From contig CAZLCY010000001.1 in the NCBI GenBank assembly GCA_964558075.1, positions 1-48,158 of the forward strand: 48,158 bases of DNA. The letters run 5' to 3'. Positions 1 to 48,158 of this stretch are shown here, one piece after another. Every line of letters starts with the position of its first letter. The first letter of the stretch is position 1. The translations under genes were made by a program, and so were the position numbers. The DNA comes from an uncultured Bacteroidales bacterium (lineage in GTDB: Bacteria > Bacteroidota > Bacteroidia > Bacteroidales > UBA1715). The notes beneath the pieces were generated by a model. That model ran no database searches. It saw only the letters and a program-made list of their open reading frames with translations, and was not told where the DNA came from.

Positions 1-12
1 GGGCCGGGATAG

Positions 13-300
13 TTACATTTGCATTGCCTGGATTTGCTCATCCTGACACTTGTTGCACTGTGTAGTTATAGCAGGGAGCCGTCCCCTGCTCATTATCACG
101 GAAGCTTCGCTTCCGCTACGGATATAGAGGCATCCGCACTCTATGTCCTGCAGGAAATCTACGAGCAGGGCATCTGTGCCGTGCCCGTTGAGGCGAATTT
201 CTGTTCTGCGGGTGTATTTACGACCCGCTATTTCTACTACGCACGGCGCATTATGCGCCTGTGCACGTAGGTGAGCGATGATTCTTGTTATTGTTTTCAT
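13..300 (-). CDS. hypothetical protein (95 aa) in the GC-richer small-gene operon
   Basis: From the ORF track. Its ATG overlaps the stop of the upstream 57-aa ORF (ATGA at 297-300), which suggests translational coupling. No motif recognised. Confidence 0.5.
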   Translation of the reverse strand: MKTITRIIAHLRAQAHNAPCVVEIAGRKYTRRTEIRLNGHGTDALLVDFLQDIECGCLYIRSGSEASVIMSRGRLPAITTQCNKCQDEQIQAMQM

Positions 301-1312: not shown

Positions 1313-1342
1313 ATAATCATTGATGCGGTTGCCGGCTGTCAA
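1313..1342 (-). promoter_or_regulatory. possible minus-strand promoter (TTGACA-18-GATTAT)
   Basis: tgtcaa at 1337-1342 gives a perfect -35 box on the minus strand. ataatc at 1313-1318 gives GATTAT. This would start a leader running into the iterons. Confidence 0.3.
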
Positions 1343-1584: not shown

Positions 1585-1667
1585 GGGGGCGAGATTGGCA
1601 CTCGACATCGACTAAAGCGTGTTTTAGCGCACTCGATTGGACGCGGGTTCGATTCCCGCCGCCTCCA
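1585..1667 (+). ncRNA. tmRNA-like tRNA-like domain only (mini-tmRNA, no tag ORF or pseudoknots)
   Basis: The acceptor stem is GGGGGCG/CGCCUCC with a G3:U70 pair and A73. The T arm is GCGGG-UUCGAUU-CCCGC. The 5' AGAUUGGCACUCGAC and 3' UUGGAC mirror the tmRNA D-loop analogue and GGAC linker. The interior is only about 31 nt (AUCGA/UCGAU helix plus a CUAAA-GCGUGU-UUUAG hairpin). No canonical anticodon arm can be drawn. Confidence 0.7.
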
Positions 1668-1675
1668 TTTATAAT

Positions 1676-13800: not shown

Positions 13801-15017
13801 ACCATATCAAGTGCGCCACCAACAAATTCTGCGCGATTGACCGCTATCATTCCTTCAGTTTCATTAAGAACGGCCTCACTCGGCGAATACAACCAATCTG
13901 CAAATCGGCCAAAAGTTCCTTTTTTACCAACATATTTTTTGAATACAGGATCGATGATTTCAGTTTTAGAGTCGCCCTTTTCAACTTCATAATTTATTTC
14001 GGTAGTATATTCTCCCGACCAAGTTTTATCTGCGCGGCGAATCTCTTGAAATACCGGTTTCATTCCTTCACTCACAAAACCGAGTAGCGGTATTCCGGCA
14101 ACGACATCACGCTCATCTAAATTATATAAATCAGCATTACCATTTAAAATATCTTCCCATGTTTGTCTAAAATTAACTAATTGTCCTGCCGCTTTAGCCG
14201 TCATTCGGCCCGGTAAAGAACCTAAATTCATAACACCGGTACCGGCGCCAGTAAGTGCATAATTTAAATCTTTAGAAGAACCACTCCGAAAAGTCGCGGC
14301 AAATGCGCCTTTAGCTTGTCGTATTTGTTCTGGAGAATATTGCTCTAATCGTAAATGTTGTGCCCATTGTTCGTCCGTGGGGGCGGGCCAATATACGACA
14401 GCATCATTTATATCTTCGCGTTTTAATTCATTTTCTCGCGTGAATACTGAATTATTATTTACGTCCGATTCCATAATTTCCGAGGCAATTGGAACTTTTT
14501 CAATTATAGTTTTTTCTTCATTATATTGTACCCACTTTTCGTTTTGTTTACCTAAAAATGCGCCTATATTTATAAGATCATTTTTAACACCCGTTATGTC
14601 TAATTTAATTCCATAATCATCGGATTCTTCCATCTCTTCAATATGTTTAACTAAATTTTCTCGTGTAAGGCTCCGATCGGGTTGTTTGCTTTGATATTCA
14701 GATAAAGCGGGTTCAATTAAATCACTTTTGAATAGTTCATATTCTGATGAACCGAGGGCAGTAAGTGGTTGACGTGCTCTATTTTGTATTTTACGTGCTT
14801 TATTAAAAACGAAATTTTTTGCATCATCAGTTAATACTACGCCTTCAGGTAATTGACCATTTTTAACTACATAGTCAACGTAGGGGCTAAGTTTTTTAGC
14901 CCCCTCTCCTTCTTGTTCGTTTGCCGGTGTTTCTCTAATAGGCGTTTCAGTTTTTTGATCATAATATGGCGATAAATCTAATTTGAAGCCATTATCGTCA
15001 TAGTTTAAAAAGTTCAA
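7899..15017 (-). CDS. giant virion-associated protein (2372 aa), putative internal/ejection protein
   Basis: This is a single uninterrupted 7.1-kb ORF. Its position, after the fibre and disordered-protein genes, resembles podovirus internal-protein modules. I recognised no polymerase, lysozyme or peptidase motif. Confidence 0.6.
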   Translation of the reverse strand: MNFLNYDDNGFKLDLSPYYDQKTETPIRETPANEQEGEGAKKLSPYVDYVVKNGQLPEGVVLTDDAKNFVFNKARKIQNRARQPLTALGSSEYELFKSDLIEPALSEYQSKQPDRSLTRENLVKHIEEMEESDDYGIKLDITGVKNDLINIGAFLGKQNEKWVQYNEEKTIIEKVPIASEIMESDVNNNSVFTRENELKREDINDAVVYWPAPTDEQWAQHLRLEQYSPEQIRQAKGAFAATFRSGSSKDLNYALTGAGTGVMNLGSLPGRMTAKAAGQLVNFRQTWEDILNGNADLYNLDERDVVAGIPLLGFVSEGMKPVFQEIRRADKTWSGEYTTEINYEVEKGDSKTEIIDPVFKKYVGKKGTFGRFADWLYSPSEAVLNETEGMIAVNRAEFVGGALDMVVDFSAFYNFGGAIDDVVKHGEVKNSMNQIYNFDPGMLPKNAVDSDNIPNLIMKSGQVDEVIDAGNTLEKYQKLLERGAKITPEMEQLAIKSKGKVNEIIGNLVNDAIIQSEDEFIKLVPKDYSKTTPEQVQELLKQANEIGFKKTVARRVANHEIENSPTIDNLVRNLDDIDEKISNINIVLDSGNADKKMEVKLRSALRNLNNLKDDLSAEFMGFNFQEVLDGKSAVDKERIARTFKDIQERTGLTPDPNYDYKAGYRVRTLHRDGHLIDEVDTFTGETILTPLQDVKKADAEGIMYSDLEAAPTIAQMEQRLINHVRKNKGSKYLYRAGKRFIKDRINNNAMADIFRIEMDNILRAAEENALEFDTPIDIKFGDGPLDLNEDRVRFLLENTNLDITKKKSTIKMLDNVLDDDLVNALKQIADPEQYTDLIRLDDALYSKSFAKFHAGIPVKDGVIRLYNNLKYQLNKLRGTVDTKRTKIEPFTHPGENVKTPVGKVRSKLGRMGLSVHQYMPVQREFGKLFELMLPRADELRDHIAAVNRLWDETSALTQMADAQQMHRMADISDSLIKFDKEEIKRITNLWDTAMRNQDSDMIDKLLIEDKNFAEVYQTIQERWFKPSYEQLKRNATERYIVDNDPEFYWNATRTERTKRVNELLSDPDFQPPGLPEKQPNYWLPKKPVEGNQKVIYHSEDGPRIALFAKNTRDAVNMGKSRILADIAEKNFGYEYKTGQIFDATEREKITKFMLDKTGLATEDELFDQVSKNINAKRLVKQLAVDKKQQALDIAKDMYVEKYFTTKGWGEVRKKLSESSADGIQSYVGTTYGDLYDFMYRRGDNVGFSADDTNVKTFLDTFHLDDPYQAMRDQLGINIPTERIDEIEKRVYYLINTKKKVLREQMNDPQYVKQLNKMANEQAELKTEPLKRGFEIQQKEFDSDVSEIVSRFRKAKSVNKQQMKKDLMSFSKEYVSELRKEWNANINESVETFKKSLEADGRYKPDDITNKVNEYKAELNYKKEKEIHAYRIERNKEIRKFKTAQDVRFKDVREHMYKHAKKVKKSFKDKINNLLEYRKRAGHKTLFSQKRQLDFYKQDLLRNMSNLDKEDMKDLLLNTGLNEAPDQYIKDFEDFKNRVNKTISVENISNKGGMDLGRLPKEKVAGRTYEVDPERGMMEYKINLKDILEDDFREAGRKIMLEPALIEAEGVVNNLRKAGGGKYADNVEKLMSGVMGRTRGKNTLNNLVYGIRNVISGLKVKHNPASALVNTTQALFDNAIYGTKVATRSHVEATADSMRFLKIKLQNRGLPHDELIKQMPEKMQVAYKLGLLDPESFATEGTRQFGIQGGVGTRVWNRTVNDHLNFFKKSEQYNRLRSFYAYLNWADERTANVGNKITEFESLLKNPDLPAVKRKSIEGKLGRLKEVQAKFGDMDMVTMLKDPNVDITDPTTWTTELKDAVINTTEGINAVHFNYTSANKGLIFQIPIIDLALNQFKTYAWSKNLNVMKALVGTLDDVAEEGISGLWKMAEPGSMKKISQLPLEVATEIMLGGIGSVVGYRMFQGFSNIFTGATNSTLKGVANVTKKRNLHQEKGEGAFRVKLLDKATHQLETGIKRVIHDMMAQRAEKLDQSTEEQEVMNKVVNYGALVVLDILDEGVVNSVTNGDWRSRFEPGGVMNIETPFLQIVDLLYQSSKPELVASGKVEKEARDTRALLTHAMLLNFGRAALNYKIEKSNELNDENWSWQDTLADSTVSLLGQEGLKVLNDARTYPINVDIRTGHVREYDGLELMLNLIGVRSADEARYSEAKRRGYNITNWEQNKESDIINTYVSRANKFTIKKLMNQPEVTMSQYNAAADYLKLRNRHEKITEENVYEIQDAILSRLAHAFKDEAINNGFDISYKRFRNAQRRTEKKPFTTSDVHGVLNEQTIKRIKKDGLSPQERLWLKYVQGEVIRDPDEDDNQRKNEIHIQ

Positions 15018-31814: not shown

Positions 31815-34199
31815 TTAACTATGCCACCTTTCTCCGATTTCACAATCGACAGTAAATTTTATTGGCGACCATTCGGGTTTGGCCTCCATAATATTCTCAA
31901 TTGTTTCTTTAACTATTTTTTCACCATTGAATGATACAACTACGCAATCATGAACTGTGCCTATTATATCAGCACCCATTGTTGGCAATAACGGTATTAA
32001 TTTAATTAAACATTTTAACATTATATCCGATGCTGTAGATTGAATTAAAAAGTTAACTGCCTGTCTATGAACTTCGGCACGATTCCAACGATTAATCACG
32101 GGGAAATGTCTTCTTCTGCCATAAGGCGTTTCAACATATCCATGCTTATCAACAAACTCACGAACTTCGCGCTTCCAATCGTCAATCATGCCAAAATATT
32201 TTGCTCTAAATTCAATAGCTTCACGCATTGTCATTTCCATTAAACGAGCAAGCTCTTCATTACTACCATCATAACAGCATAAAAAATTAACACCTTTAGC
32301 ATCACGCCTAACAGCGTTTGGTTTATGTTCTTGCATACGCACTAATGTAATATTATGCATATCTTTTCCAGCCTTAATTTCATCAATCGTTTCTTTTGCG
32401 CCAGCCTTAACTACGATAACTTTAAATTCAAGCTGGGAGTAATCCCACTCGCCAATTTTAGAATGATTATCATACGGAATGAATAACATTCTTAATGATT
32501 TAGGAATGTTCTGAAAATTAGGGCGTGCCGAAGACAGTCGCCCCGATACAGTCCCGTGCACATTAAACGTTGGATGAATTAAATCATCCGACCATAATAA
32601 TGTTTTATAGTCTTCAATACCCGTATAAGGACGAACATACGTTGAAACTAATTTATGCAACTTTTTATATTGCAATAGTTTAGTAAAGAACGGATGACCC
32701 GTTTCTTTTAAAAGTTCTTCCATTGTATCAGCATCAGTTTTTTTAACTTCATGTCCACAAAAATGAGCAAATATTATTTGATTATGTACATAAGAATTTG
32801 GTTTATACTCTAATCTATCCTTCCAATACTTATAATCTTTCTTTGCTTGTTTCAAATGTTTATTCAATGCCAGAATGTTATTTTTTGCACCGGCTAATTT
32901 AGACTTCCAATGTTTTATTTGAGAGTTAAATGTACTCATCTTTTCTGCACGAATATTCTTATATTCTGAAAGAATTTGGAGTTCTTTTTCCATCTTTTTT
33001 AGCTTTCTATTTGCTGATTTAAATATATTACGAGCAAGATCCTTATCAATGTTGATACCTTTATATTCTATTTTAGTTTTCTCATTAAATAACGGAATAA
33101 GAATTTCGTAATAGAATTTAGGTAATCCTTTTTTCAAATACTTTGATGCTAATTGATACGTAACATATACGTCCATAGCCAAATACTTACGAAGTATATT
33201 AGTAGGAACAGAAGACCATCCGATACTATTAGCAATCTCTTTAACCTCTGCATCATATTGATGGAATCCTAATTCGAGTGCACCTAATCTTTTCAAACTA
33301 TAACCACCATATTGCCGATCACCTTTTTTTGATGCCGATAAAGTTTCATCAAGGGCATACGCCATAATCATTGTATCATGATTTATTCGTGGCCAATCAC
33401 CATATAATTTTTTTAACCACTTAATATCAAATGTGCCATTATGATAACACATCGGTGTATTTAAAAAGAACTCTTTACATTCAGGCCAATCAAGATTCTC
33501 TCGCGGAATTATCCAAGCAGTTTTGCCATCATAAATCCCTACTTCCATAATCTCTTGATTTAACCAATTTAATCCTTCAGTTTCTAAATCACAAGTGATT
33601 AATCCGCTCGTATCAATCTCTTTAATTTGAGATCGTTTAGTAATAACTGCATATGGAATTTCTTTCGGCGGATTATAGTTCTTAACAATACGTTCGAGAG
33701 AACTTTTAAATAAACTATAATTTTTATCATTATGTTTGCGCAAAACAAAAGCTGGATGAGGACATACAAGAACATCACATTCTGCAATATCCGACCAATA
33801 AATCTGTCCGCTGTTTACAATAACGCCTTTTTTAACGTTAGGCAATAGGTATTCAAATGCTTTTGAACCGAGTGCAATAATTAGTTCCTTGTTCTTGCAT
33901 TCATTTAGTTCATCAAGCAAATACTCATTTGCACAATCACGCACTGCTGATAAATTAGGGGCACGTACAAAACATTTGAGTGCATTAGTTGTATAAAAAT
34001 CATTGCGATTCAGACCTAATTCTTTTAGCACTCTAAATAATAAATTACCACTACGCCCGGAAAAAGGACGCTTAGTCCCTACATCCGTTTTACCGGGTGC
34101 TTCACCTACAATAATGTATTTAGCATCTTTATTTCCGTATCCATTAACATATAATCCTCTTGCGTATTTATATGGACATTTTTTACATGTTTCATTCAT
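31815..34199 (-). CDS. family A DNA polymerase with N-terminal family-4 UDG-like domain and 3'-5' exonuclease
   Basis: The UDG-like domain has CKKCPY, GEAPG...SGRSGNLL and CPHPAFVLR. The exonuclease has CDLETEGL, YHNGTFDIKWL and YLAMDVYVTYQL. The polymerase has WDYSQLEFKV (motif A), RRDAKGVNFLCCYDGS (motif B) and GTVHDCVVV (motif C). Confidence 0.9.
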   Translation of the reverse strand: MNETCKKCPYKYARGLYVNGYGNKDAKYIIVGEAPGKTDVGTKRPFSGRSGNLLFRVLKELGLNRNDFYTTNALKCFVRAPNLSAVRDCANEYLLDELNECKNKELIIALGSKAFEYLLPNVKKGVIVNSGQIYWSDIAECDVLVCPHPAFVLRKHNDKNYSLFKSSLERIVKNYNPPKEIPYAVITKRSQIKEIDTSGLITCDLETEGLNWLNQEIMEVGIYDGKTAWIIPRENLDWPECKEFFLNTPMCYHNGTFDIKWLKKLYGDWPRINHDTMIMAYALDETLSASKKGDRQYGGYSLKRLGALELGFHQYDAEVKEIANSIGWSSVPTNILRKYLAMDVYVTYQLASKYLKKGLPKFYYEILIPLFNEKTKIEYKGINIDKDLARNIFKSANRKLKKMEKELQILSEYKNIRAEKMSTFNSQIKHWKSKLAGAKNNILALNKHLKQAKKDYKYWKDRLEYKPNSYVHNQIIFAHFCGHEVKKTDADTMEELLKETGHPFFTKLLQYKKLHKLVSTYVRPYTGIEDYKTLLWSDDLIHPTFNVHGTVSGRLSSARPNFQNIPKSLRMLFIPYDNHSKIGEWDYSQLEFKVIVVKAGAKETIDEIKAGKDMHNITLVRMQEHKPNAVRRDAKGVNFLCCYDGSNEELARLMEMTMREAIEFRAKYFGMIDDWKREVREFVDKHGYVETPYGRRRHFPVINRWNRAEVHRQAVNFLIQSTASDIMLKCLIKLIPLLPTMGADIIGTVHDCVVVSFNGEKIVKETIENIMEAKPEWSPIKFTVDCEIGERWHS

Positions 34200-39421: not shown

Positions 39422-39835
39422 TTATTCCAGCCTTTCTTTATACACATACACGTGTGCCAACGCATCTTTTTCATGTGGTGTTCTTCCTTTTAATTCACGC
39501 TTTGCTTCACGAATTTTAGACAATCTTTCCTGCGGTTTTTGATTTGCATAAATAAACTTTATGTCCCGTTTCTTATTAATTATCTTTTCAAACATCAAGA
39601 ATATACCTACAAAAATGCCTCTGTAAAAAGCCGGTGTTGCCATGAATCTGGAATTTCCAATTTCGTGTTCCATTATAATATGAATGTCGTCTTCAGCCAA
39701 AGATAAAATGTCAAGCATGTCTTCAGCAAATTCTTCGTGTATAGTGTCCGGGGTGTATGCCTTTGTATGACATACACGCCCATTGTGATATACTACAACT
39801 CCTGTTGTTTCGCCCGGATCAATTCCTATAAGCAT
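39422..39835 (-). CDS. RuvC-like Holliday junction resolvase
   Basis: The N-terminus MLIGIDPGETTG supplies the first catalytic Asp. MEHE and HEKDALAH carry the later acidic and His residues. At 137 aa the size fits. Confidence 0.7.
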   Translation of the reverse strand: MLIGIDPGETTGVVVYHNGRVCHTKAYTPDTIHEEFAEDMLDILSLAEDDIHIIMEHEIGNSRFMATPAFYRGIFVGIFLMFEKIINKKRDIKFIYANQKPQERLSKIREAKRELKGRTPHEKDALAHVYVYKERLE

Positions 39836-39842
39836 ATATATT

Positions 39843-40145
39843 TCACTCCTTCAATTTTAACTCTTTTTCTATACGTGCTTCTTCTTCCTTAACCTGTTTT
39901 TCAATTTTTTCGACAACAGATCGAGTTGCCCAGTATGGATCTATGTTTACGTTTTTATGATACTCGGTTATACATGTAGTATTACCAATTTTATCTACAT
40001 ATTCTATATTATATACAATACTACCATTTTTCAATACTTCTACATGTATAATTTCTCCTCTATATAATGTAAGATGTCTATCCATAAAATAAACAAATGT
40101 TCCGGGTTTATAAACCATCATCATATTATCAGTATTAAAATTCAT
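39843..40145 (-). CDS. hypothetical protein (100 aa)
   Basis: The track starts the ORF at a GTG at 40157. I prefer the ATG at 40145, after AAAGGTGG. No motif recognised. Confidence 0.5.
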   Translation of the reverse strand: MNFNTDNMMMVYKPGTFVYFMDRHLTLYRGEIIHVEVLKNGSIVYNIEYVDKIGNTTCITEYHKNVNIDPYWATRSVVEKIEKQVKEEEARIEKELKLKE

Positions 40146-40146
40146 A

Positions 40147-40290
40147 TTATTTACCACCTTTCATCGAAATAACTGTAGTTAACACAGTGTCTGTATTCTT
40201 ACGGAAACTTTTCTTAATCCTCTTTGACCAAAACTTTTTAGCCTCTTTTACCAACTTATTAAATAACTTCTTTTTTGGATGTAATACCAT
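40147..40290 (-). CDS. small basic protein (47 aa)
   Basis: Hand-translated as MVLHPKKKLFNKLVKEAKKFWSKRIKKSFRKNT... . Its ATG directly abuts the SNF2 stop. Confidence 0.4.
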   Translation of the reverse strand: MVLHPKKKLFNKLVKEAKKFWSKRIKKSFRKNTDTVLTTVISMKGGK

Positions 40291-41928
40291 TTAATCATTC
40301 CTTTCCTGTTTCATTTTAAAAATAACATTCATCATAGAAATTTTTTTAGATTTCTCTTTTGCAGTTGATTCAATCGCTTCATCAATTGTTATTATGTCAT
40401 CAGAATGTCCAATGATTTTATACACGTTTACCGGATATTTTGATGTTACCCGATGACAACGATCAATTGCTTGTTCATTAACGGCTGGATTCCAATCCTG
40501 TTCTGCCATAATTACATTATGACAAAAATCCAAATTTCGTCCTTCACCTATAGACTTTAGAGTAGCAACCATTATATTTGTATCTCCGCTGAATTCTTGT
40601 ATAGCCTTATCTCGTAAGACTACAGGTGTTTCGCCATCGACATAAATTACTTTCTCTAATGAACGTAAATGATCAGCCAACATTCGCCCAAAATCGCGAT
40701 GCCAAACAACCACTACTACTTTATTGCCTTCAACCGTGATATCCCGCACAAGATTATAAACAATCTCATTTTTGGGTTCGTAATCTTTATATCCCAAAGA
40801 TGATGGATAATTTATTAACTGTCGTAGATAACTAATAATAGACAGCGCAGTTTTTTTGACTTTCTCACCATCAACATTAATGACTTGTTCTTCACTAATC
40901 TTTTTATACAACGCGGTGTGTTCTTTCGATAAAGGCGCAAGTATATAATTAATGTTTTTGGGTGGTAAATCAAAACCAACCGCTTCTTTAGTTCGACGCA
41001 AGCGAATGGTTTTAAGAATTTCGCCTAATTCATCAAGATTTTTTGGCCCTAAAAGTTCAGTACCCCACGGGCCTCTCAAAGTTTCGACATACCGATAAAT
41101 GAAATTCCATTTAGAACTAAATCTCCGATTGTCAAGGCAGTTAAGCAAGTGCCATAGTGTATCTGGATTTTTAGTGAACATATCACTGCCGGACATTAGC
41201 ACAACGTAATTACTATGCTGTGCTAAACTATTTACAGCCTTTGATTGTTGTGATTGACTGTTTGAAATTCGATGCACTTCATCTACAATCAATACTTCAT
41301 AATTACAATAAATGTCTTTATATGTGCTAATCGTTGCCGTTCTATATGATACAATCAGAATTTTTCTTTCTTCGCAAAATTCAAATTCACGTAAGATTGA
41401 TTCCTTCTGATTTTTAGATCCCATTAATGCGAATACTTTTGGGATATTACCCCCAAAAATCTTTGTCCATTTAATGATTTCCCCGTACCATTGAGGAATT
41501 AAATAAGCCGGGCATATAATTAACGCATTACCACCAATTTCTTCCATAGCTTTTATCGCTTCGACGGTTTTACCTAATCCACGATCATCTCCGATGATGA
41601 CTCGTTTGGCCTTTTTAATAAAGCTAACCGCCTTTGACTGATACGGATATAAAGGTTTCCTATCAACAGAATCAAATTCCAGCATATCCAGAATCTCATT
41701 CTCGTGTTCTATCGACTTATTGAACCATTCTTTCATCGGTTCACTCAATTTAACATTTGATACTTTGTGCATAATTATATCCAGAAGGACATAATCGGGA
41801 TGAAAAGATACTTTTCCGCTTTGTCGTTTACATTTCGTTATTGCAACGACCTCATTGAGTTCCGCAGGTGTTCCATGCGCATAGATCCTTTTAAGACCTG
41901 TCGTATGGAACTTTCCTGTTATAAACAT
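40291..41928 (-). CDS. SNF2-family helicase/ATPase
   Basis: DDRGLGKT is motif I, LIVDEVHR is DExH, and NEQAIDRCHR is motif VI. Confidence 0.85.
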   Translation of the reverse strand: MFITGKFHTTGLKRIYAHGTPAELNEVVAITKCKRQSGKVSFHPDYVLLDIIMHKVSNVKLSEPMKEWFNKSIEHENEILDMLEFDSVDRKPLYPYQSKAVSFIKKAKRVIIGDDRGLGKTVEAIKAMEEIGGNALIICPAYLIPQWYGEIIKWTKIFGGNIPKVFALMGSKNQKESILREFEFCEERKILIVSYRTATISTYKDIYCNYEVLIVDEVHRISNSQSQQSKAVNSLAQHSNYVVLMSGSDMFTKNPDTLWHLLNCLDNRRFSSKWNFIYRYVETLRGPWGTELLGPKNLDELGEILKTIRLRRTKEAVGFDLPPKNINYILAPLSKEHTALYKKISEEQVINVDGEKVKKTALSIISYLRQLINYPSSLGYKDYEPKNEIVYNLVRDITVEGNKVVVVVWHRDFGRMLADHLRSLEKVIYVDGETPVVLRDKAIQEFSGDTNIMVATLKSIGEGRNLDFCHNVIMAEQDWNPAVNEQAIDRCHRVTSKYPVNVYKIIGHSDDIITIDEAIESTAKEKSKKISMMNVIFKMKQERND

Positions 41929-41950
41929 TTAATCACTCCTTTCAATAACT

Positions 41951-41979
41951 ATTATATCACATTTACATCATCTTGTCAA
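41951..41979 (-). promoter_or_regulatory. consensus promoter (TTGACA-17-TATAAT) of the replication operon
   Basis: tgtcaa at 41974-41979 and attata at 41951-41956. The RBS AAAGGAG lies upstream of the ATG at 41928. Confidence 0.7.
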
Positions 41980-42068
41980 GCGATCGTACATCCGCATACA
42001 AAATTCAATAAAAATTGTCAATGGTATTAATGAAAACAATACAATGAACACAGTAAAAACAATATCAA

Positions 42069-42518
42069 TCACCAAATCATCATCTCTGGTAAAAAATCAA
42101 TAACTTCATCCAATGATGCAACTATATGTGTTGCAAATTCTGCGGGAAATGGAACTTTTTTAGGATCTTCTGTTACCAAAATAAATGGTTTTCCTAAAGT
42201 CCATGCATAACATGTTTCCCAAATTGCGCCTGTCGTATATACGTCTTCCGGTAAATATAAAACAATCCAATCCGCTGATCTTACATCAGCTAAATCTCTA
42301 TTCACATAAAGATGTCGATCTCCAATTTGTTGGATTGATCCTCTTGAAATGTCAATTAAACCAACGGGTCTAATATTGGCATTTTGTAGTGCTAACATAG
42401 TCCGAATTTTCGCCCGGATATTGGCGTCAAACTCATCTCTGATTTTTTTACTTTCACTATCACCAATACTGCCGTATGGCATAGCCAAATAAATGGATCT
42501 TGCCCACGTTTTATTCAT
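42069..42518 (-). CDS. nucleoside 2-deoxyribosyltransferase-like protein
   Basis: SIYLAMPYGS is an N-terminal YLAGP-like element. TTGAIWETCYAWTLGKPFILV resembles the G..E.G.A...GKP motif. Confidence 0.5.
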   Translation of the reverse strand: MNKTWARSIYLAMPYGSIGDSESKKIRDEFDANIRAKIRTMLALQNANIRPVGLIDISRGSIQQIGDRHLYVNRDLADVRSADWIVLYLPEDVYTTGAIWETCYAWTLGKPFILVTEDPKKVPFPAEFATHIVASLDEVIDFLPEMMIW

Positions 42519-42769
42519 TTTTTGCCTCCAATTCTTGCTTCAATACCTCTTTTAACCGCTTCCAAAACACATAAAACATCTGGTTCATTCAATTCATTCC
42601 AATAAGCATCAGCCTCACAATCAGGAGTTACGAAAATGAGAATTATATCCTGTACTTCATCTTCGTAATTTTCCATTACTGAAACAAACTTTTTTTGCCT
42701 TCTTGAACAATCAATAATGTTAATTGCCTGCTCAATCGGACTTATTCTTTTTTTAGACATTAAGATCAA
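42515..42769 (-). CDS. hypothetical protein (84 aa)
   Basis: From the ORF track, with overlapping start and stop relative to its neighbours. Confidence 0.5.
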   Translation of the reverse strand: MILMSKKRISPIEQAINIIDCSRRQKKFVSVMENYEDEVQDIILIFVTPDCEADAYWNELNEPDVLCVLEAVKRGIEARIGGKK

Positions 42770-43289
42770 TTTCTTTCTTTAAGTTTTCGACAGCTTCAAT
42801 CACTTCAGAGTAATTATCATACTCAAAATAATGAATAGTATAGACATCTACAATTCTTGTCATATCATCCATTGCAACGACTGCAGTCCATGCATCATCG
42901 TTTTTTATGATAGATCGAATCATTTCATCGAATTGATCGTCAGTTATACACGTATAGAATTGAATGTCGTATTTCCAAATAAGATAATCATCCGCTATTT
43001 CCTTAGGATATTCAACCGATACGGCATACTTAATACTTGAATCACCATCACTATACTCTGAAGGTATATTTTGCACAATACGAATTATCACATCATCTTT
43101 GGATTTTTTACTTTTACCTGATGTAGCAACCATACCATACACATGTAAGGATTCCTCTAAAGAAGCATCTGTCCCTACAAACTTGTTTGCATACAAGTAT
43201 TTAAAGAATTCGTCAGAAGTTTGAAGCTCTTTTCGTTCATCTTTCGTTAATGACGCCATGTCAATAGATTTTGCCCATGCTTTACTCAT
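42753..43289 (-). CDS. hypothetical protein (178 aa)
   Basis: From the ORF track. No motif recognised. Confidence 0.5.
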   Translation of the reverse strand: MSKAWAKSIDMASLTKDERKELQTSDEFFKYLYANKFVGTDASLEESLHVYGMVATSGKSKKSKDDVIIRIVQNIPSEYSDGDSSIKYAVSVEYPKEIADDYLIWKYDIQFYTCITDDQFDEMIRSIIKNDDAWTAVVAMDDMTRIVDVYTIHYFEYDNYSEVIEAVENLKKEIDLNV

Positions 43290-43567
43290 TATATCAATCC
43301 TTTCTGTTTTTGTTTTACAAATTCCTCAACTGGTATTTCCACAGTAAACCGTCTTTTAGTTAATTTGCCTTCTTTCCAAAAGGCAAATTTACCTTTTGAA
43401 GCACGAAGTGTTCCTTTACCGTCAATGATGTATCCACGCATTGGCTTTTCCAAGAAAAAATCAGCTTTTTCAAATGTTGAACCGTCAGGCAATTCAATAG
43501 CTCTAAAGTTATCCTTTGCAAAAAATTCCTCTTCTGTTAATAGTGTTATAATTTTTCTACTTTTCAT
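43289..43567 (-). CDS. hypothetical protein (92 aa)
   Basis: From the ORF track. It is the first gene after the promoter at 43600-43628. Confidence 0.5.
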   Translation of the reverse strand: MKSRKIITLLTEEEFFAKDNFRAIELPDGSTFEKADFFLEKPMRGYIIDGKGTLRASKGKFAFWKEGKLTKRRFTVEIPVEEFVKQKQKGLI

Positions 43568-43599
43568 TTAAACCATCCTTTCATTTATTTTGTAATTAC

Positions 43600-43628
43600 A
43601 TGTTAACACATGTTTTAATACTTGTCAA
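43600..43628 (-). promoter_or_regulatory. promoter (TTGACA-17-TAACAT)
   Basis: tgtcaa at 43623-43628 and atgtta at 43600-43605. The flanking aacacatgt is shared with the promoter at 44569. Confidence 0.55.
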
Positions 43629-43632
43629 AGGT

Positions 43633-44247
43633 TTATTCAATATTATCCAGAATTATTTCTGCCATTTCTTCATCCACTATTTTCCATATATCACGACCAT
43701 GATAAAAATACGTTAATTCGTCATAATCCTTATCATATCTTACTCCATCAATTATTATTTCCTTATTACAGCAATATTCGCCCGTATAAATGAAATTGTT
43801 AAAATTATATTGAAGAATGTCTTCTCCAATATCTTTTCCGTTTTCAAGTATAAAATCTTTCAATTTGTACCAATGTGCCCATGTATCAACCATGATAAGT
43901 GAATAACTGCTACCATCAGCAAAATTAGCCGTTATTTCAAACCTATACTTTTCATTACCAAAAAGCGTGTTAATCGCTTCTTCCAATCTTTCTGCTAATT
44001 CTATTGCCTGCCATAAAATGAATTCAAATTCGTTTTCAATGATTTTATCATCGGAATACCATTTAATTAGATTTTCGTGTTGATAAATCCCATCAGTACA
44101 ATAAGTCAAATCACTTAACCATGTACGATGTTCGCCATTTTCATCAATCCAATAATCAACAGTATTATAATTTTGTTCAATTACATACTCTAATCCGCGA
44201 AGGTTAAAACCTATTCTTAAAATATCTTTTGCTTCATCTTTTTTCAT
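43633..44247 (-). CDS. hypothetical protein (204 aa)
   Basis: From the ORF track. No motif recognised. Confidence 0.5.
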   Translation of the reverse strand: MKKDEAKDILRIGFNLRGLEYVIEQNYNTVDYWIDENGEHRTWLSDLTYCTDGIYQHENLIKWYSDDKIIENEFEFILWQAIELAERLEEAINTLFGNEKYRFEITANFADGSSYSLIMVDTWAHWYKLKDFILENGKDIGEDILQYNFNNFIYTGEYCCNKEIIIDGVRYDKDYDELTYFYHGRDIWKIVDEEMAEIILDNIE

Positions 44248-44537
44248 TATATCAGATCCTTTCCGTGTGCTTCTTTAACATTATCAAAAATAACTTCAAC
44301 TAATTCATCATAATTTATTTTATGAAAGTTTCCTTTTCTCACTTCCGATGAATTCATAGCAAATATTTCCCATTCTGCCTTTAGTTTTTCTATTAATGTT
44401 TCCCTGTCATCGAACTTCGCTCTGTTTATAGCGAATTCCTCTAATTCTTCTCCAAACGTACTATTATACGCCCAAAGTGAAACATTCCATGTTTCCCAAT
44501 TCGTAAAACCATTGTAACTCATGAGTTTTTCCTCCAT
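44247..44537 (-). CDS. hypothetical early protein (96 aa)
   Basis: From the ORF track. It contains a W-rich segment, NGFTNWETWNVSLW. It is the first gene after the promoter at 44569-44597. Confidence 0.5.
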   Translation of the reverse strand: MEEKLMSYNGFTNWETWNVSLWAYNSTFGEELEEFAINRAKFDDRETLIEKLKAEWEIFAMNSSEVRKGNFHKINYDELVEVIFDNVKEAHGKDLI

Positions 44538-44568
44538 TTCATTTTGTTTTTTTCTTTAACCTATACAT

Positions 44569-44597
44569 ATGATAACACATGTATTTTTTATTGTCAA
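44569..44597 (-). promoter_or_regulatory. promoter (TTGACA-17-TATCAT) of the early operon
   Basis: tgtcaa at 44592-44597 and atgata at 44569-44574. Confidence 0.6.
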
Positions 44598-44621
44598 GTA
44601 TTTGTACAAACTTTTTTTTAT

Positions 44622-44667
44622 TTGATTTCAATTAGACTGTAAAAGTATTGATTTCAATTAGACTGTA
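44622..44667. repeat. 20-bp direct repeat x2 (TTGATTTCAATTAGACTGTA, 26-bp period)
   Basis: Exact copies lie at 44622-44641 and 44648-44667, which is 25-70 bp upstream of the -35 box at 44592-44597. Further TGAATTCAT copies lie at 44712 and 44734. Confidence 0.85.
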
Positions 44668-44935
44668 CTTTATATATTATATTATAAACTTCGAACAAAC
44701 GTTAACCAGCCTGAATTCATTCTACAAAAAATTTGAATTCATCCTATTCATATATTTGCATATTCACATATTCAAATATTTATATATCAATACGCCGTAT
44801 ATGTCATTCTTTTGTATGTCTTAATAAGATATTACCTAAAAGCAAAATAAACCCTGTGTACGCTCTGCTACAGGATGTACAAACCGCATTTTAGGGTTAA
44901 TTGATGACGTTTTTTAGGGAATTAATGTGCAGGCA

Positions 44936-44966
44936 TTAAAAAAGACCATGTTTCCGCATAGTCTTT
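44936..44966 (-). terminator. rho-independent terminator
   Basis: The minus strand reads AAGACUAUG-cggaaa-CAUGGUCUU, a 9-bp stem including one G:U pair, followed by a run of U residues. It lies about 27 nt after the stop at 44993. Confidence 0.65.
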
Positions 44967-44992
44967 AAACTTTTACCTGCTGGTTTAAGTTA

Positions 44993-45493
44993 TTAAAACA
45001 ACGAATCATATTTAACGTCAAATCTACTGATTGAATTATTTTTCATTGTAGGCATTTTAATTCCTGTGGTTGTGTAATGATTGATTTTTTTCCCTGAAAA
45101 AATTAATTGAAGGGAATTTATGTTTCTTGCATTGTCGATGACAACACGTTTTAATTTATGCAAAGAATAAAAATCATCAAATATGGCATACAATTCATCG
45201 CGGGAAATATCCCATAAAAAACCTTGAAAGTTAATTCCAAAGTTTAATGTATTTGTAGTAACAAAAGTTCTTTTTGTCAATGGGAATAGATTCAAAAAGA
45301 TTAATTCATTAGATAATTCTTGTTTATTGAACATTTCCTTGAATTGTTCGGGTTTTCTTATTCTTTTTCCATAAATTCTGAAATACGCTTTAATTTCATC
45401 AATTTTTTTCACATAAATTCCTTCTTCTAATATAATTTTTGAAGCTTTCTGTACCATTTTCTTGCATCCAAGTAACGAATGGTATCCAGTCAT
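44993..45493 (-). CDS. hypothetical protein (166 aa or shorter)
   Basis: From the ORF track. It overlaps the upstream amidoligase-like ORF by 95 nt. The internal ATG at 45457 would reduce the overlap. Confidence 0.45.
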   Translation of the reverse strand: MTGYHSLLGCKKMVQKASKIILEEGIYVKKIDEIKAYFRIYGKRIRKPEQFKEMFNKQELSNELIFLNLFPLTKRTFVTTNTLNFGINFQGFLWDISRDELYAIFDDFYSLHKLKRVVIDNARNINSLQLIFSGKKINHYTTTGIKMPTMKNNSISRFDVKYDSLF

Positions 45494-46703
45494 ATTTCAA
45501 GTTTGAACTTTCGAATTCAAACAGGTTAAAATATTCGAAAATCATATGTATTAGTTCGATTGTTGCAAGAAAAGTTTCCGCATTCAGGGTACCTCTAAAG
45601 TACCTAAATTCATATGTTTGACTTCGCGATAGATTAATACAGTTATGATGATTGTACACGTTTTCAAACTGCAAGAAGAATTCATCGTGAACCTCATCGG
45701 CAGTTTTTTTGCCGTCAACATATTTTATAATGTCATCATAAGATTCGACCGGCTCACACGTGGAAGTGTTTATAAATTTTCTGTTATATGTAGATTCTTT
45801 GCGCCGGCAAAAATTTCGAATTTCATCGTTGTTATCTGCGAAAAATTTGAGCACATGTGGCATTAACCTGTTTGTGCGGTTATTTTTAGATATATGTATA
45901 TGCAAGCCACAGGTTAACGTATTATCGCTCCTGTACCCTACCCGTATTAATTTTTCAAACCAGAAACGAAAGTTATGCTTTTTCAATGTATGGAAACAGC
46001 ATGGTTTTGAAACTATCTCAAAACCGTTGTCAAGAGATGAATCCCATGACATGCCCGCAACGATATTACTTGCATAATTCATTATCAGCTTTGCGGCGTC
46101 ATTGTGCCGTGTACCAGTTTGTGAAGCTCTATCAGCTTCAATTTCCAGTTCGAAACCGATAAGAGTTTTTTCGTTCGATCGCGTGCATTTTTCGCAACGT
46201 GTCCACTTGAACCGATCTTTAGGAATTTGATGATAATCATGTATTGCATTAATTGTATTATATCCGCACGGACATTCACCTTCCGTACGATAATGACCAC
46301 AACCGGGACATTTAGTTGCGTTTAGGTCATCTATACAATTATAGCATATAGTTTCAATTTCCAAATCATGATACATAAAAAACGTATAATAACTGTGATG
46401 ATAATTATCACAGTTTGCACAACACACGTAATTCTCAAAACATGATTTGCAAACATGAACTTCCACTTCCGCAATACATTCTATTACAATATAATTATAC
46501 TCGTAATTGTCTTTGCGTATTAAACCAGTGCAATCATTGCACCGTGTATAACATCGCGGACAATACTCTGTAGCGGGAATTATCCTTTTACAAAGCGGGC
46601 AGTTTTTATATTCTTCATAAAATGCCCATTGTATTGTTGATGGCATTGTATTCATGCCTATTTTTATATTTAAATAAAAATTCATTATTATCTTCTTTCC
46701 CAT
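45399..46703 (-). CDS. amidoligase-like (glutamine synthetase/GCS2-fold, Amidoligase_2-type) protein with N-terminal multi-CxxC zinc-ribbon array
   Basis: The C-terminal half has IGFELEIE, WDSSLDNGFEIVSKP, LTCGLHIHIS and TYEFRYFRGTLN in the order typical of this family. The N-terminal roughly 150 aa carry at least 8 CxxC/CxC pairs. The start could be the ATG at 46685. Confidence 0.6.
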   Translation of the reverse strand: MGKKIIMNFYLNIKIGMNTMPSTIQWAFYEEYKNCPLCKRIIPATEYCPRCYTRCNDCTGLIRKDNYEYNYIVIECIAEVEVHVCKSCFENYVCCANCDNYHHSYYTFFMYHDLEIETICYNCIDDLNATKCPGCGHYRTEGECPCGYNTINAIHDYHQIPKDRFKWTRCEKCTRSNEKTLIGFELEIEADRASQTGTRHNDAAKLIMNYASNIVAGMSWDSSLDNGFEIVSKPCCFHTLKKHNFRFWFEKLIRVGYRSDNTLTCGLHIHISKNNRTNRLMPHVLKFFADNNDEIRNFCRRKESTYNRKFINTSTCEPVESYDDIIKYVDGKKTADEVHDEFFLQFENVYNHHNCINLSRSQTYEFRYFRGTLNAETFLATIELIHMIFEYFNLFEFESSNLKYDWIPFVTWMQENGTESFKNYIRRRNLCEKN

Positions 46704-46825
46704 ATTTCATCAATTATTTCCGCATCGCTGTTTGATGCTGAATTGTCATTGTGAAGCATCGAATTTAATGCTTCGTTTATAATTACACTAACAGTAATTA
46801 TGATTATGCCAATTAGTGTATTCAT
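46688..46825 (-). CDS. small membrane protein (45 aa)
   Basis: Hand-translated as MNTLIGIIIITVSVIINEALNS... . It has one N-terminal TM helix and an acidic tail. RBS AAGGATGG lies upstream. Confidence 0.45.
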   Translation of the reverse strand: MNTLIGIIIITVSVIINEALNSMLHNDNSASNSDAEIIDEIWERR

Positions 46826-46865
46826 TCTTCCATCCTTCTTTTAGTTAATTTGCCTTTCATATTGC

Positions 46866-46906
46866 AAAAAAAAGGATGAATAATCCCCATAAGAGGATTA
46901 TCCACC
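46866..46906 (-). terminator. rho-independent terminator
   Basis: The minus strand forms an imperfect hairpin, GGUGGAUAAUCC...GGAUUAUUCAUCC, directly followed by U8 (A8 at 46866-46873 on the plus strand). Confidence 0.6.
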
Positions 46907-46915
46907 CGAGTATTT

Positions 46916-46999
46916 TTAGCATGCTATCACGGCCATAAAAATGACCATAATAATCCACGCTATCATGGCAATTTCTTGCCATGTTAATTCAATTTTCAT
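46916..46999 (-). CDS. 27-aa hydrophobic peptide
   Basis: Hand-translated as MKIELTWQEIAMIAWIIMVIFMAVIAC. RBS AGGAG lies 8 nt upstream. It follows the structured leader at 47029-47108. Confidence 0.45.
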   Translation of the reverse strand: MKIELTWQEIAMIAWIIMVIFMAVIAC

Positions 47000-47028
47000 A
47001 TTTCATACTCCTTTTTTTTAAATACAAA

Positions 47029-47052
47029 TTACCCGGATTTGTCGACTCCGGG
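47029..47052. repeat. conserved 24-nt hairpin repeat, copy 1 (minus strand: CCCGGA-GUCGACAAA-UCCGGG-UAA)
   Basis: ttacccggatttgtcgactccggg is identical to 47772-47795. A truncated copy lies at 48148-48158 and a 10-nt remnant at 1294-1303. Confidence 0.9.
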
Positions 47053-47108
47053 CGTGCCGGATAGAGGGAAGCAAGCCCGGCACCTGAAATAGGTAAGGTC
47101 TTACTTCC
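47053..47108 (-). ncRNA. unclassified pseudoknotted RNA element
   Basis: The minus strand has GGAAG (47108-47104) complementary to CUUCC (47071-47067). That CUUCC lies in the loop of a 7-bp hairpin, GUGCCGG (47083-47077) paired with CCGGCAC (47060-47054). A small GUAA-GACC-UUAC hairpin lies between them. Together these give an H-type pseudoknot topology. Confidence 0.4.
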
Positions 47109-47156
47109 AAAAAATAAAGCCATCATATATCCTCCAAACAGATATACAATGGCTTT
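47109..47156 (-). terminator. rho-independent terminator after the 169-aa gene
   Basis: On the minus strand AAAGCCAU pairs with AUGGCUUU, with an inner AUAUC/GAUAU helix, followed by AUUUUUU. Confidence 0.6.
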
Positions 47157-47159
47157 ATT

Positions 47160-47669
47160 TTATATAAATTCCCTTTGTATATATTCTTCATAGGCCGTTT
47201 TACGGCCTATGATGGCTATTGTCGTTGTGGTTGTAGTGCTATTCATATGCACTACTTTTTTATTTTTACCTTCGGGGAGGCAAACTATGCCTTTCCCGTC
47301 GAAATAATACACATTACAGGGAGCGACATCGTAATGTGCAATTTTACGATGCTCTCCCCCCCCTGTTGTGTATTCTATGACTTCTGAAGGCTCTATGTCC
47401 TCCAGAAGGACCCTTGATTTTTTTCCCTTTGGAACTATAAAAGTTCCGTAGGGTTCTTTTCTTATTTCCCATCCGGGAATCAACCATTCAGGGGAATGGT
47501 TTAATATGAAACCGGGTTTTATTTCCCCGGTTTTAGTATTAATTGCATCTCCCCATTCATGGGGGTTGGTGCAATTAAAAAATGGATTTATACTCTTATG
47601 ATAATGCAGACCTGCCATAGTCTGCATTTTACGGAGCTGTTTAAGCTCCTTTTTATTTAGTTTTTTCAT
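47160..47669 (-). CDS. hypothetical protein (169 aa)
   Basis: I set the start at the ATG at 47669 (MKKLNKKELKQ), after AAAGAGGAAG. The track's 30-codon N-terminal extension runs through the hammerhead sequence. Confidence 0.55.
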   Translation of the reverse strand: MKKLNKKELKQLRKMQTMAGLHYHKSINPFFNCTNPHEWGDAINTKTGEIKPGFILNHSPEWLIPGWEIRKEPYGTFIVPKGKKSRVLLEDIEPSEVIEYTTGGGEHRKIAHYDVAPCNVYYFDGKGIVCLPEGKNKKVVHMNSTTTTTTIAIIGRKTAYEEYIQREFI

Positions 47670-47714
47670 TTTTTCTTCCTCTTTCTCCCCTTTTCGCCGG
47701 AGCGCGGTTGATTT

Positions 47715-47771
47715 CCGTTTCGCTCCCCGCTGGTTGCGGAGGCTCATCAGCCCTGTCAATTCAGGGGACGG
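47715..47771 (-). ncRNA. type III hammerhead self-cleaving ribozyme
   Basis: The minus strand reads CCGU-C/CCCUG-AAUUGA-CAGGG-CUGAUGA-GCCUCCGC-AACCA-GCGGGGAGC-GAAA-CGG. All invariant core residues are present: CUGAUGA, GAA, the A15.1:U16.1 pair and the G10.1:C11.1 pair. The GUC cleavage triplet places the cut between 47767 and 47766. Confidence 0.85.
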
Positions 47772-47795
47772 TTACCCGGATTTGTCGACTCCGGG
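47772..47795. repeat. conserved 24-nt hairpin repeat, copy 2
   Basis: It is identical to 47029-47052 and lies immediately 5' (on the minus strand) of hammerhead stem III. Confidence 0.9.
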
Positions 47796-47817
47796 TGGGC
47801 CGTGGGAAGGGAGTGAA

Positions 47818-48075
47818 TTACTCTTCACTCCCCTCCCAAGTTACTCTCATAATAAATTCGAAATCTTCGAATTCATAGCTGGCATACCAGGGCAGGGCTT
47901 CGAACCCATATTTATCCTGGTATTTAAACATGACAAGGCACTGTTCCATTGACAGTGCCTTAATGAGAGCCAACCCGGCCTCCGCCGGGCTGATGCCGTT
48001 ATCATATTCCAGCGCATCCTGAAGCGATATAGTATCCAAATTGCCAATTTGGATATTTTTTACTTCCGTATTCAT
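47818..48075 (-). CDS. hypothetical protein (85 aa) flanked by two ribozymes
   Basis: From the ORF track, with RBS AGGAGG 7 nt upstream. Its last codons form the 5' arm of a 9-bp hairpin (GGGAGUGAA/UUCACUCCC). Confidence 0.6.
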   Translation of the reverse strand: MNTEVKNIQIGNLDTISLQDALEYDNGISPAEAGLALIKALSMEQCLVMFKYQDKYGFEALPWYASYEFEDFEFIMRVTWEGSEE

Positions 48076-48103
48076 TTTCTTCCTCCTAAATTTTTACTCC
48101 CAT

Positions 48104-48150
48104 CCCCCTTTAACACGGGCTTTGGACCGTCCTCGGCGGGGTTAAAGTTA
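48104..48150 (-). ncRNA. twister-like self-cleaving ribozyme (core)
   Basis: The minus strand reads UAA-CUUUAAC-CCCGCCGAGG-ACGG-UCCAAAGC-CCGU-GUUAAAG-GGGG. P2 is CUUUAAC/GUUAAAG and P4 is ACGG/CCGU with an 8-nt loop, UCCAAAGC. The loop GC can pair with the upstream GCC, and the loop CC with the 3' G-run. This is the twister double-pseudoknot layout. Confidence 0.6.
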
Positions 48151-48158
48151 CCCGGATT
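48148..48158. repeat. conserved hairpin repeat, copy 3 (truncated at the window end)
   Basis: ttacccggatt matches the first 11 nt of the repeat. Joined to window position 1 (gggccgggatag), it gives a shorter CCCGG-CCCAAU-CCGGG hairpin on the minus strand. Confidence 0.7.

Follow-up and report, generated by a model that had tools for sequence, protein, structure and literature searches.

Hammerhead ribozymes that bracket small non-conserved phage ORFs, often near ribozymes of other classes, have been described since 2011. In prophages, hammerheads flank single genes and cleave native transcripts of ~2 kb in vitro, and the processing of polycistronic RNA has been proposed as their function (PMC3088659). 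Hammerheads linked to phages were likewise found to flank small non-conserved ORFs (de la Pena et al. 2017, PMC6155905), and twister and hammerhead ribozymes share gene neighbourhoods (Roth et al. 2014, summarised in PMC6765202). Intercistronic cutting of phage and prophage transcripts by hammerheads is therefore a proposal that has already been made (PMC3088659, PMC6765202). Here we describe a locus of this kind in a window of 48158 nt, which is a whole contig with ~34% GC and nearly all of its genes on the minus strand. The early region is made up of small orphan genes. Between two ORFs of the same orientation there, and on their coding strand, lies an element that is very probably a functional type III hammerhead in a leftward early transcript of a tailed phage, judging from its sequence and predicted structure. 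The coordinates of the features are collected in the table.

The contig is from an uncultured tailed phage. It encodes an SNF2 helicase, a PD-(D/E)XK nuclease and a family A DNA polymerase fused to UDG, together with SU10-like portal and adaptor proteins and a capsid protein. The helicase has at most ~29% identity to the helicase of any INPHARED phage. The polymerase is a single ORF of 794 aa (31815-34199, minus strand) with an N-terminal uracil-DNA glycosylase superfamily domain according to Pfam, and the structural half of the genome includes a single ORF of 2372 aa (7899-15017, minus strand). The genes next to the hammerhead are orphans. No Pfam or PHROG family was found for the 85-aa ORF, the 85-aa and 169-aa proteins matched only themselves among 5.8 billion proteins, and the 169-aa and 434-aa proteins had no relatives in IMG/VR. 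A blastn search of 44000-48158 against INPHARED gave no match, and the locus-specific hammerhead pattern was absent from GTDB genomes and metagenomes. Since searches of IMG/VR, JGI metagenomes, GTDB genomes and INPHARED all failed to turn up a relative of the locus, covariation could be shown only for the wider phage hammerhead family. A leftward promoter-like site was located at 1342..1313, and none was found beside the ribozymes. Elsewhere in the contig, a sigma-70 promoter with a perfect 12/12 match and an extended -10 (1546-1574) is directly followed by an 86-nt element (1585-1670, plus strand), which precedes genes for tRNA-Met, tRNA-Gln and tRNA-Leu (1676-1917). This element has a tmRNA score of 51.9 relative to an Rfam gathering score of 47. 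Its match is confined to the tmRNA acceptor stem and T arm, with 316 model positions skipped, and it resembles a tRNA-like domain that lacks the mRNA-like part; ARAGORN made no call.

Table. Features of the ribozyme locus, with positions in the 48158-nt window
Feature	Position	Strand	Details
Twister-P1 ribozyme (predicted)	48148..48096	minus	RF03160; without optional P3
Type III hammerhead ribozyme (predicted)	47771..47715	minus	core, descriptor, Rfam RF00008, model R1
Hammerhead stem III, 5' strand CCGU	47771-47768	minus	
Hammerhead C17	47767	minus	predicted cleavage 47767/47766
Hammerhead stem I hairpin	47766-47751	minus	5 bp, 6-nt loop AAUUGA
Hammerhead core CUGAUGA	47750-47744	minus	
Hammerhead stem II	47743-47722	minus	8 bp, one bulged A, 5-nt loop AACCA (RNAfold)
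Hammerhead GAA (G12-A14)	47721-47719	minus	
Hammerhead stem III, 3' strand ACGG	47718-47715	minus	
Hairpin A	47832..47809	minus	GGGAGUGAA-GAGUAA-UUCACUCCC, 9 bp; MFE and centroid
Hairpin B copy 1, 3' arm AAUCCGGGUAAC	48158..48147	minus	abuts twister; interrupted by contig end
Hairpin B copy 2	47795..47772	minus	CCCGGA-GUCGACAAA-UCCGGG then UAA; 6-7 bp stem, 9-nt loop
Hairpin B copy 3	47052..47029	minus	exact 24-nt repeat, then U-rich UAAUUUGUAUUU; no ribozyme after
85-aa acidic orphan ORF	47818..48075	minus	AGGAGG Shine-Dalgarno 48087-48082
169-aa orphan ORF	47160..47669	minus	GAGG Shine-Dalgarno 47681-47678; public protein P0001

The minus-strand letters of the hammerhead element read CCGUC/CCCUG-AAUUGA-CAGGG-CUGAUGA-GCCUCCGC-AACCA-GCGGGGAGC-GAA-ACGG, where the slash marks the predicted cut, and in their context they read CCCGGAGUCGACAAAUCCGGG-UAA-CCGUC/CCCUGAAUUGACAGGG-CUGAUGA-GCCUCCGCAACCAGCGGGGAGC-GAA-ACGG-AAAUC. 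The core positions C3 U4 G5 A6 N7 G8 A9 and G12 A13 A14 are all present. The cleavage triplet is GUC, with U16.1 at 47768, C17 at 47767 and A15.1 at 47718, and stem II is closed by the pair of G10.1 (47743) with C11.1 (47722). Stems I and II are capped by loops and both ends of the element lie within an open stem III of 4 bp, which is the topology of type III. An earlier note on this DNA had described the element in these terms, and its description stands: the invariant core in the right order with the G10.1:C11.1 and A15.1:U16.1 pairs and the GUC triplet is borne out by the sequence and by our descriptor, the 5-bp stem I and the 8-bp stem II with its bulged A by RNAfold, and the open 4-bp stem III, and with it type III, by the sequence and the RF00008 alignment. 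The predicted cut between 47767 and 47766 was likewise placed at the right position on the sequence. Both stems I and II are present in the minimum free energy (MFE) structure of the 64-nt element (RNAfold, z-score -2.3); the 4-bp stem III is absent from what RNAfold predicts by the energy model alone. Fast hammerhead cleavage at physiological (low) Mg2+ depends on a tertiary contact of the peripheral elements of stems I and II. Inspection of the loops AAUUGA and AACCA showed no stretch of 3 nt or more that could form Watson-Crick pairs between them, and a Watson-Crick pseudoknot between the two loops was rejected on this ground; contacts that are non-canonical or involve the bulged A are not readable from sequence.

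A shuffled window is expected to contain the bare pattern CUGAUGA...GAAA 1.7 times, so that by itself it carries no weight. A full descriptor, which requires the core, G10.1-C11.1, A15.1-U16.1, any base but G at position 17 and a minimum stem length of 4 bp, matched exactly one site in the window (47771..47715, minus strand) and none in 400 first-order Markov random windows searched on both strands. The Rfam model RF00008 (Hammerhead_3) aligned to the element end to end, over model positions 1-54, with 25.5 bits (E 0.0035 in a 501-nt search). This is below the RF00008 gathering score of 48.5, so a default Rfam scan is silent on the hammerhead. The check that the earlier note had put forward, a search with the Rfam type III model, thus returned the full-length alignment but a score (25.5 bits) short of the gathering value. 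The gathering threshold is an annotation convention and no biological criterion. With the covariance model R1, built from phage hammerheads as described below, the element scored 36.3 bits (E 1.4e-7, whole window, filters off), and the next match in the window had 12 bits. No second hammerhead was found in the window by R1, with nothing else above 12 bits, and no further ribozymes were found in permissive Rfam scans of 39500-47200 and 1-2800. On the sequence and secondary structure, the predicted hammerhead has every feature of type III and falls short only of the Rfam score convention.

These results also bear on the gene downstream. The ORF listing reads through the hammerhead from a TTG at 47759, giving a 199-aa ORF, and this together with the unreached gathering score might be taken to mean that the element is a chance match or codes for an N-terminal extension. 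We regard this as barely credible, because the full motif is in none of the 400 random windows and R1 matches at E 1.4e-7, and because the TTG lies within the stem I loop and lacks an RBS, whereas the public gene starts at ATG 47669 with a Shine-Dalgarno sequence (GAGG, 8 nt upstream). The public protein has 169 aa, and the earlier suspicion that the N-terminal extension is spurious was right; the gene start is corrected accordingly, to 169 aa instead of 199 aa. Coordinates also confirm the gap of 46 nt that had been given between the stop of the 85-aa ORF (47818) and the hammerhead, and a further 45 nt separate the hammerhead from ATG 47669.

We then considered how the hammerhead folds within a longer RNA. 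In a 161-nt context the nearest-neighbour model favours a non-hammerhead fold by 7 kcal/mol (-64.8 vs -57.8), in a comparison that ignores the tertiary energy of the hammerhead. In the competing fold, CGCUCC (47704..47699) pairs with GGAGCG (the 3' strand of stem II plus G12), and AGGGGA near the RBS (region 47691..47685, minus strand) pairs with UCCCCU of stem I. The MFE structure keeps stems I and II as long as the transcript reaches no more than ~10 nt beyond the ribozyme, and the competing fold is preferred once CGCUCC has been transcribed, which suggests that cleavage may be kinetically gated or conditional. The competing pairings may form a conditional switch, or they may be fortuitous. 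A competing fold that is 7 kcal/mol more stable in the model would also be compatible with a hammerhead that is intact in sequence but irrelevant or decaying, either because it is a passenger of a hairpin-bounded gene cassette or because it is too slow. The atypical peripheral elements, the lack of an evident tertiary contact and a stem III of only 4 bp point the same way, as do the orphan status of the flanking genes and the report that some phage hammerheads may be non-functional (PMC3088659). Nevertheless, we consider such a passenger or relic to be quite improbable. All 11 of 11 invariant core bases, both closing pairs and the three helices are intact, and an element of 61% GC in a genome of 34% GC would decay fast without selection. 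The placement of the hammerhead fits the norm of its family, and the adjacent twister is intact and has a compensated T1 pair.

This predicted twister, which the earlier note does not mention, was found upstream of the 85-aa ORF. It matches RF03160 over its full length with 46 bits (E 3.9e-7, whole window), the gathering score of 67.2 not being reached, and 20 nt lie between its end and the ATG of the 85-aa ORF. Its predicted cut is between U48144 and A48143. The conserved segments UAA, GCC, GGUCC-AAGCCCG and GGA-GG of the RF03160 alignment are kept, and the marks of type P1 are all found: the L1 and L4 nucleotides, the U-A dinucleotide, P1, P2, P4 and the double pseudoknot T1/T2. There are two deviations from the consensus C and G, namely A48123 in L4 (CCC to CCA) and U48102 in L1 (GGG to UGG). 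Since A48123 and U48102 are the two sides of one T1 base pair (for the structure of the T1 pseudoknot of twister, see the review PMC5408937), the pair is kept despite both deviations. The same L4 A and L1 U recur together in two independent IMG/VR twisters. The 85-aa orphan gene is bracketed by two predicted ribozymes of different classes, and as the twister and the hammerhead flank it, their cuts would excise an RNA of 377 nt (48143..47767).

Both ribozymes abut the same hairpin, a repeat that the earlier note likewise passes over. Copy 2 of hairpin B, with an MFE of -12 kcal/mol, ends 2-3 nt before the hammerhead. The 24-mer CCCGGAGUCGACAAAUCCGGGUAA occurs exactly twice (47795..47772 and 47052..47029), with 0 expected by chance, and its last 12 nt recur a third time at the contig end, abutting the twister; this phage has the same 12-24 nt hairpin sequence at a twister, at a hammerhead and at a ribozyme-less site. 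The ribozyme-less copy 3 lies inside a 45-aa ORF (46989..47126) with a good RBS, and may be a terminator or a 3' stabiliser. A different hairpin, A, holds the UAA stop of the 85-aa ORF in its loop. When the contig ends are joined, CCCGG (8..4) opposes CCGGG (48155..48151) and supplies the 5' arm of hairpin B copy 1, while the stop (15..13) of a 95-aa ORF (300..13, minus strand) comes to lie just upstream of the hairpin. The order of stop, hairpin, ribozyme and RBS is thereby reproduced at the twister. This suggests that the contig may be a closed circle or a circularly permuted complete genome. The hairpin B sequence was absent from IMG/VR and JGI metagenomes. Two other identities for hairpin B were rejected. 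One was a part of another ribozyme: no Rfam family was found at E <= 5 over copy 3 or the upstream flank, and hatchet, pistol, twister-sister and HDV-like ribozymes had no match over the same stretch at this cut-off. The other was a promoter, with the ribozymes acting as trimmers of the 5' end: no sigma-70-like site overlaps any copy; the perfect 12/12 promoter at 1546-1574 indicates that this promoter type is recognisable in the genome.

To place the hammerhead in a wider family, IMG/VR was searched with the frame CCGUC-N12-20-CUGAUGAG-N10-30-CGAAACGG. This frame is carried by more than 120 loci, a lower bound, with 101 distinct sequences among the matches listed, and stems I and II are complementary in all 101 of these. 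In an alignment of 100 of the distinct sequences listed (A1), from which R1 was built, the paired fraction is 99.3% in stem I and 99.5% in stem II, and compensatory changes are seen at 6 of 6 pairs in the former and at 3 of 4 in the latter; in slid controls the paired fraction falls to 30-45%. Because the set was selected with the core and stem III of the window's own hammerhead, that frame is shared by construction, and the independent evidence is only the stem I/II architecture and the existence of the family. Among the matches listed, 51 of the 57 evaluable hammerheads are co-oriented with the surrounding ORFs; the median distance from an ORF stop to the start of the hammerhead is 26 nt, and that from the end of the hammerhead to the next Shine-Dalgarno and start is 30 nt. 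The corresponding distances at the window hammerhead are 46 and 45 nt.

The family also has a hairpin upstream. A structure of -10 kcal/mol or better was found in the upstream 40 nt of 83% of the IMG/VR hammerheads among the matches listed, compared to 13% of random 40-mers from the same loci and 20% of the 40-nt stretches after other same-strand stops (n=775; Mann-Whitney p = 3e-32). The distance between the end of the hairpin and CCGUC is 0-2 nt in 86 of 100 cases, again among the matches listed. UUCG or GNRA tetraloops are frequent in these hairpins, whose stems show covariation from contig to contig. Of the plausible IMG/VR twisters inspected by eye, 7 of 7 have a hairpin directly upstream. 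A search of GTDB genomes with a generic frame gave 117 distinct pattern matches over many phyla, 33 of them with proper ungapped stems, and the upstream hairpin in 58% of these 33 agrees with the IMG/VR result, with more noise. The pairing of hairpin and ribozyme appears general in viral contigs. No description of it was found in the literature searched, the coverage of which is incomplete, so its novelty is unproven. Type III hammerheads were also seen in twos or threes, at most a few kb apart, on many viral contigs, often with one shared upstream hairpin, e.g. GUGUCUUCAAAGACAC; such multi-hammerhead IMG/VR loci (L070, L014, L038, L057, L075, L084, L105, L109, L111 and L117) have compensatory hairpin variants between contigs.

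The most likely role of the hammerhead, as far as can be read from the locus, would be the host-independent cutting of a polycistronic early transcript. We infer that the element cleaves itself in vivo, that the flanking genes are co-transcribed and that cleavage may affect RNA stability. During the passage of RNA polymerase, the stem I and stem II hairpins would fold, and the 4-bp stem III would shut after ACGG has been synthesised. The RNA would then cut itself after C47767, so that the upstream RNA ends in a 2',3'-cyclic phosphate and the downstream RNA begins with a 5'-OH. Cutting by twister and hammerhead would release the RNA 48143..47767 as a monocistronic RNA of 377 nt, parted from the 169-aa cistron. 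The GC-rich hairpin upstream of each ribozyme probably belongs to the module. Once the hammerhead has cut, 7-8 nt would separate hairpin B from the new 3' end, a distance at which it could hold off 3' exonucleases. Stacking on the short open stem of each ribozyme (stem III of the hammerhead, P1 of the twister) is a second possible role, alone or in combination. As an open stem adjoins the hairpin in both ribozymes, the data fit 3'-end protection and stacking alike. The downstream RNA would begin flush with stem I and bear the 5'-OH, with the body of the ribozyme capping its 5' end.

The fate of such ends differs between hosts. Ends with a 5'-OH are handled poorly by 5'-end-dependent RNases and should be protective in many hosts. 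In Bacillus subtilis, RNase J1 degrades the downstream (5'-OH) product of the glmS ribozyme, and the 5'-OH could promote decay in hosts such as Bacillus with RNase J1. The glmS example thus lends some support to the possibility that the hammerhead is active but lowers expression, with cleavage exposing the 169-aa or the 85-aa mRNA to decay and so setting the stoichiometry or timing of the early genes. It would gain from the competing fold formed by CGCUCC and AGGGGA, which could make cleavage conditional, and from reporter work showing that twisters in 3' UTRs can change expression (cited in PMC6765202). We think this unlikely, since a hairpin B 7-8 nt from the 3' end and a stem I flush at the 5' end fit protection better and the association with an upstream hairpin is strong and general.

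The GC-rich hairpin on the 5' side of the ribozyme may be more than incidental. We tentatively suggest that phages could have a widespread processing cassette, independent of ribozyme class, made up of stop codon, hairpin, self-cleaving ribozyme and RBS, a generalisation that we find possible but somewhat short of probable. In such a cassette the upstream mRNA would end in a protective hairpin, and the downstream mRNA would start with a 5'-OH flush against the ribozyme helices. If true, phages would obtain mRNAs of single genes, each stabilised on its own, with no need of a host RNase. In a more remote variant, the 377-nt RNA, which would have a 5'-OH and a 2',3'-cyclic phosphate, might be closed into a circle by an RtcB-type ligase; Pfam scans of 29 ORFs of the phage gave no RtcB or RNA ligase.

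Since the arrangement of two ribozymes around a gene is well known in phages, the finding is correct but ordinary, and the hammerhead is one more phage instance among thousands. It is an instance with a long stem II that the Rfam type III model misses at its gathering score. With an orphan early gene, ribozymes of two classes and the same hairpin at each, the locus offers a clean test case for the role of self-cleaving ribozymes in phages. The pairing of hairpin and ribozyme, if functional, would be a concrete mechanism for host-independent formation and protection of mRNA ends.

The locus can be compared with several known systems. Host RNases such as RNase E and RNase III cut between cistrons with protective hairpins, and RiboJ is a synthetic ribozyme insulator. 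Processing by RNase E or RNase III is alike in that an intercistronic cut and terminal stem-loops uncouple the cistrons, whereas the cut at our locus would be made by the RNA itself. RiboJ has an added hairpin downstream of the ribozyme and the hairpin of the window is upstream. The likeness to both is one of function only and not of membership. In comparison with RF00008, the core bases, stems I-III and GUC align over model positions 1-54; stem II of the window hammerhead is 18 nt longer than that of the model, which treats it as an insertion, and the two outer pairs of stem III are missing. The IMG/VR type III hammerheads share with it the stem III core, the catalytic core, the layout of stop, hairpin, hammerhead and RBS, and the orientation, the frame being shared by construction. 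Their majority form has a stem I of 6-7 bp with a UGUG-type loop and a stem II of 4 bp with a 4-nt loop, in contrast to the 5-bp stem I with AAUUGA and the 8-bp bulged stem II with AACCA described here. The described phage and prophage hammerheads (Perreault et al. 2011, PMC3088659; PMC6155905) lie around single genes or short gene blocks and are, like the predicted one, intergenic and co-oriented with their neighbours; here as there, a small non-conserved ORF lies between one ribozyme and a second, and the role proposed is to process long phage transcripts into mRNAs of one gene each. The tandems reported there consist of several hammerheads, whereas the pair in the window is a twister and a type III hammerhead, and PMC3088659 makes no mention of an abutting upstream hairpin like that of the window ribozymes. 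As in the described co-location of twisters and hammerheads (PMC6765202), the window has two unrelated self-cleaving classes less than 400 nt apart in a phage early region, and although its twister is without P3 and below the gathering score, there is no difference in kind.
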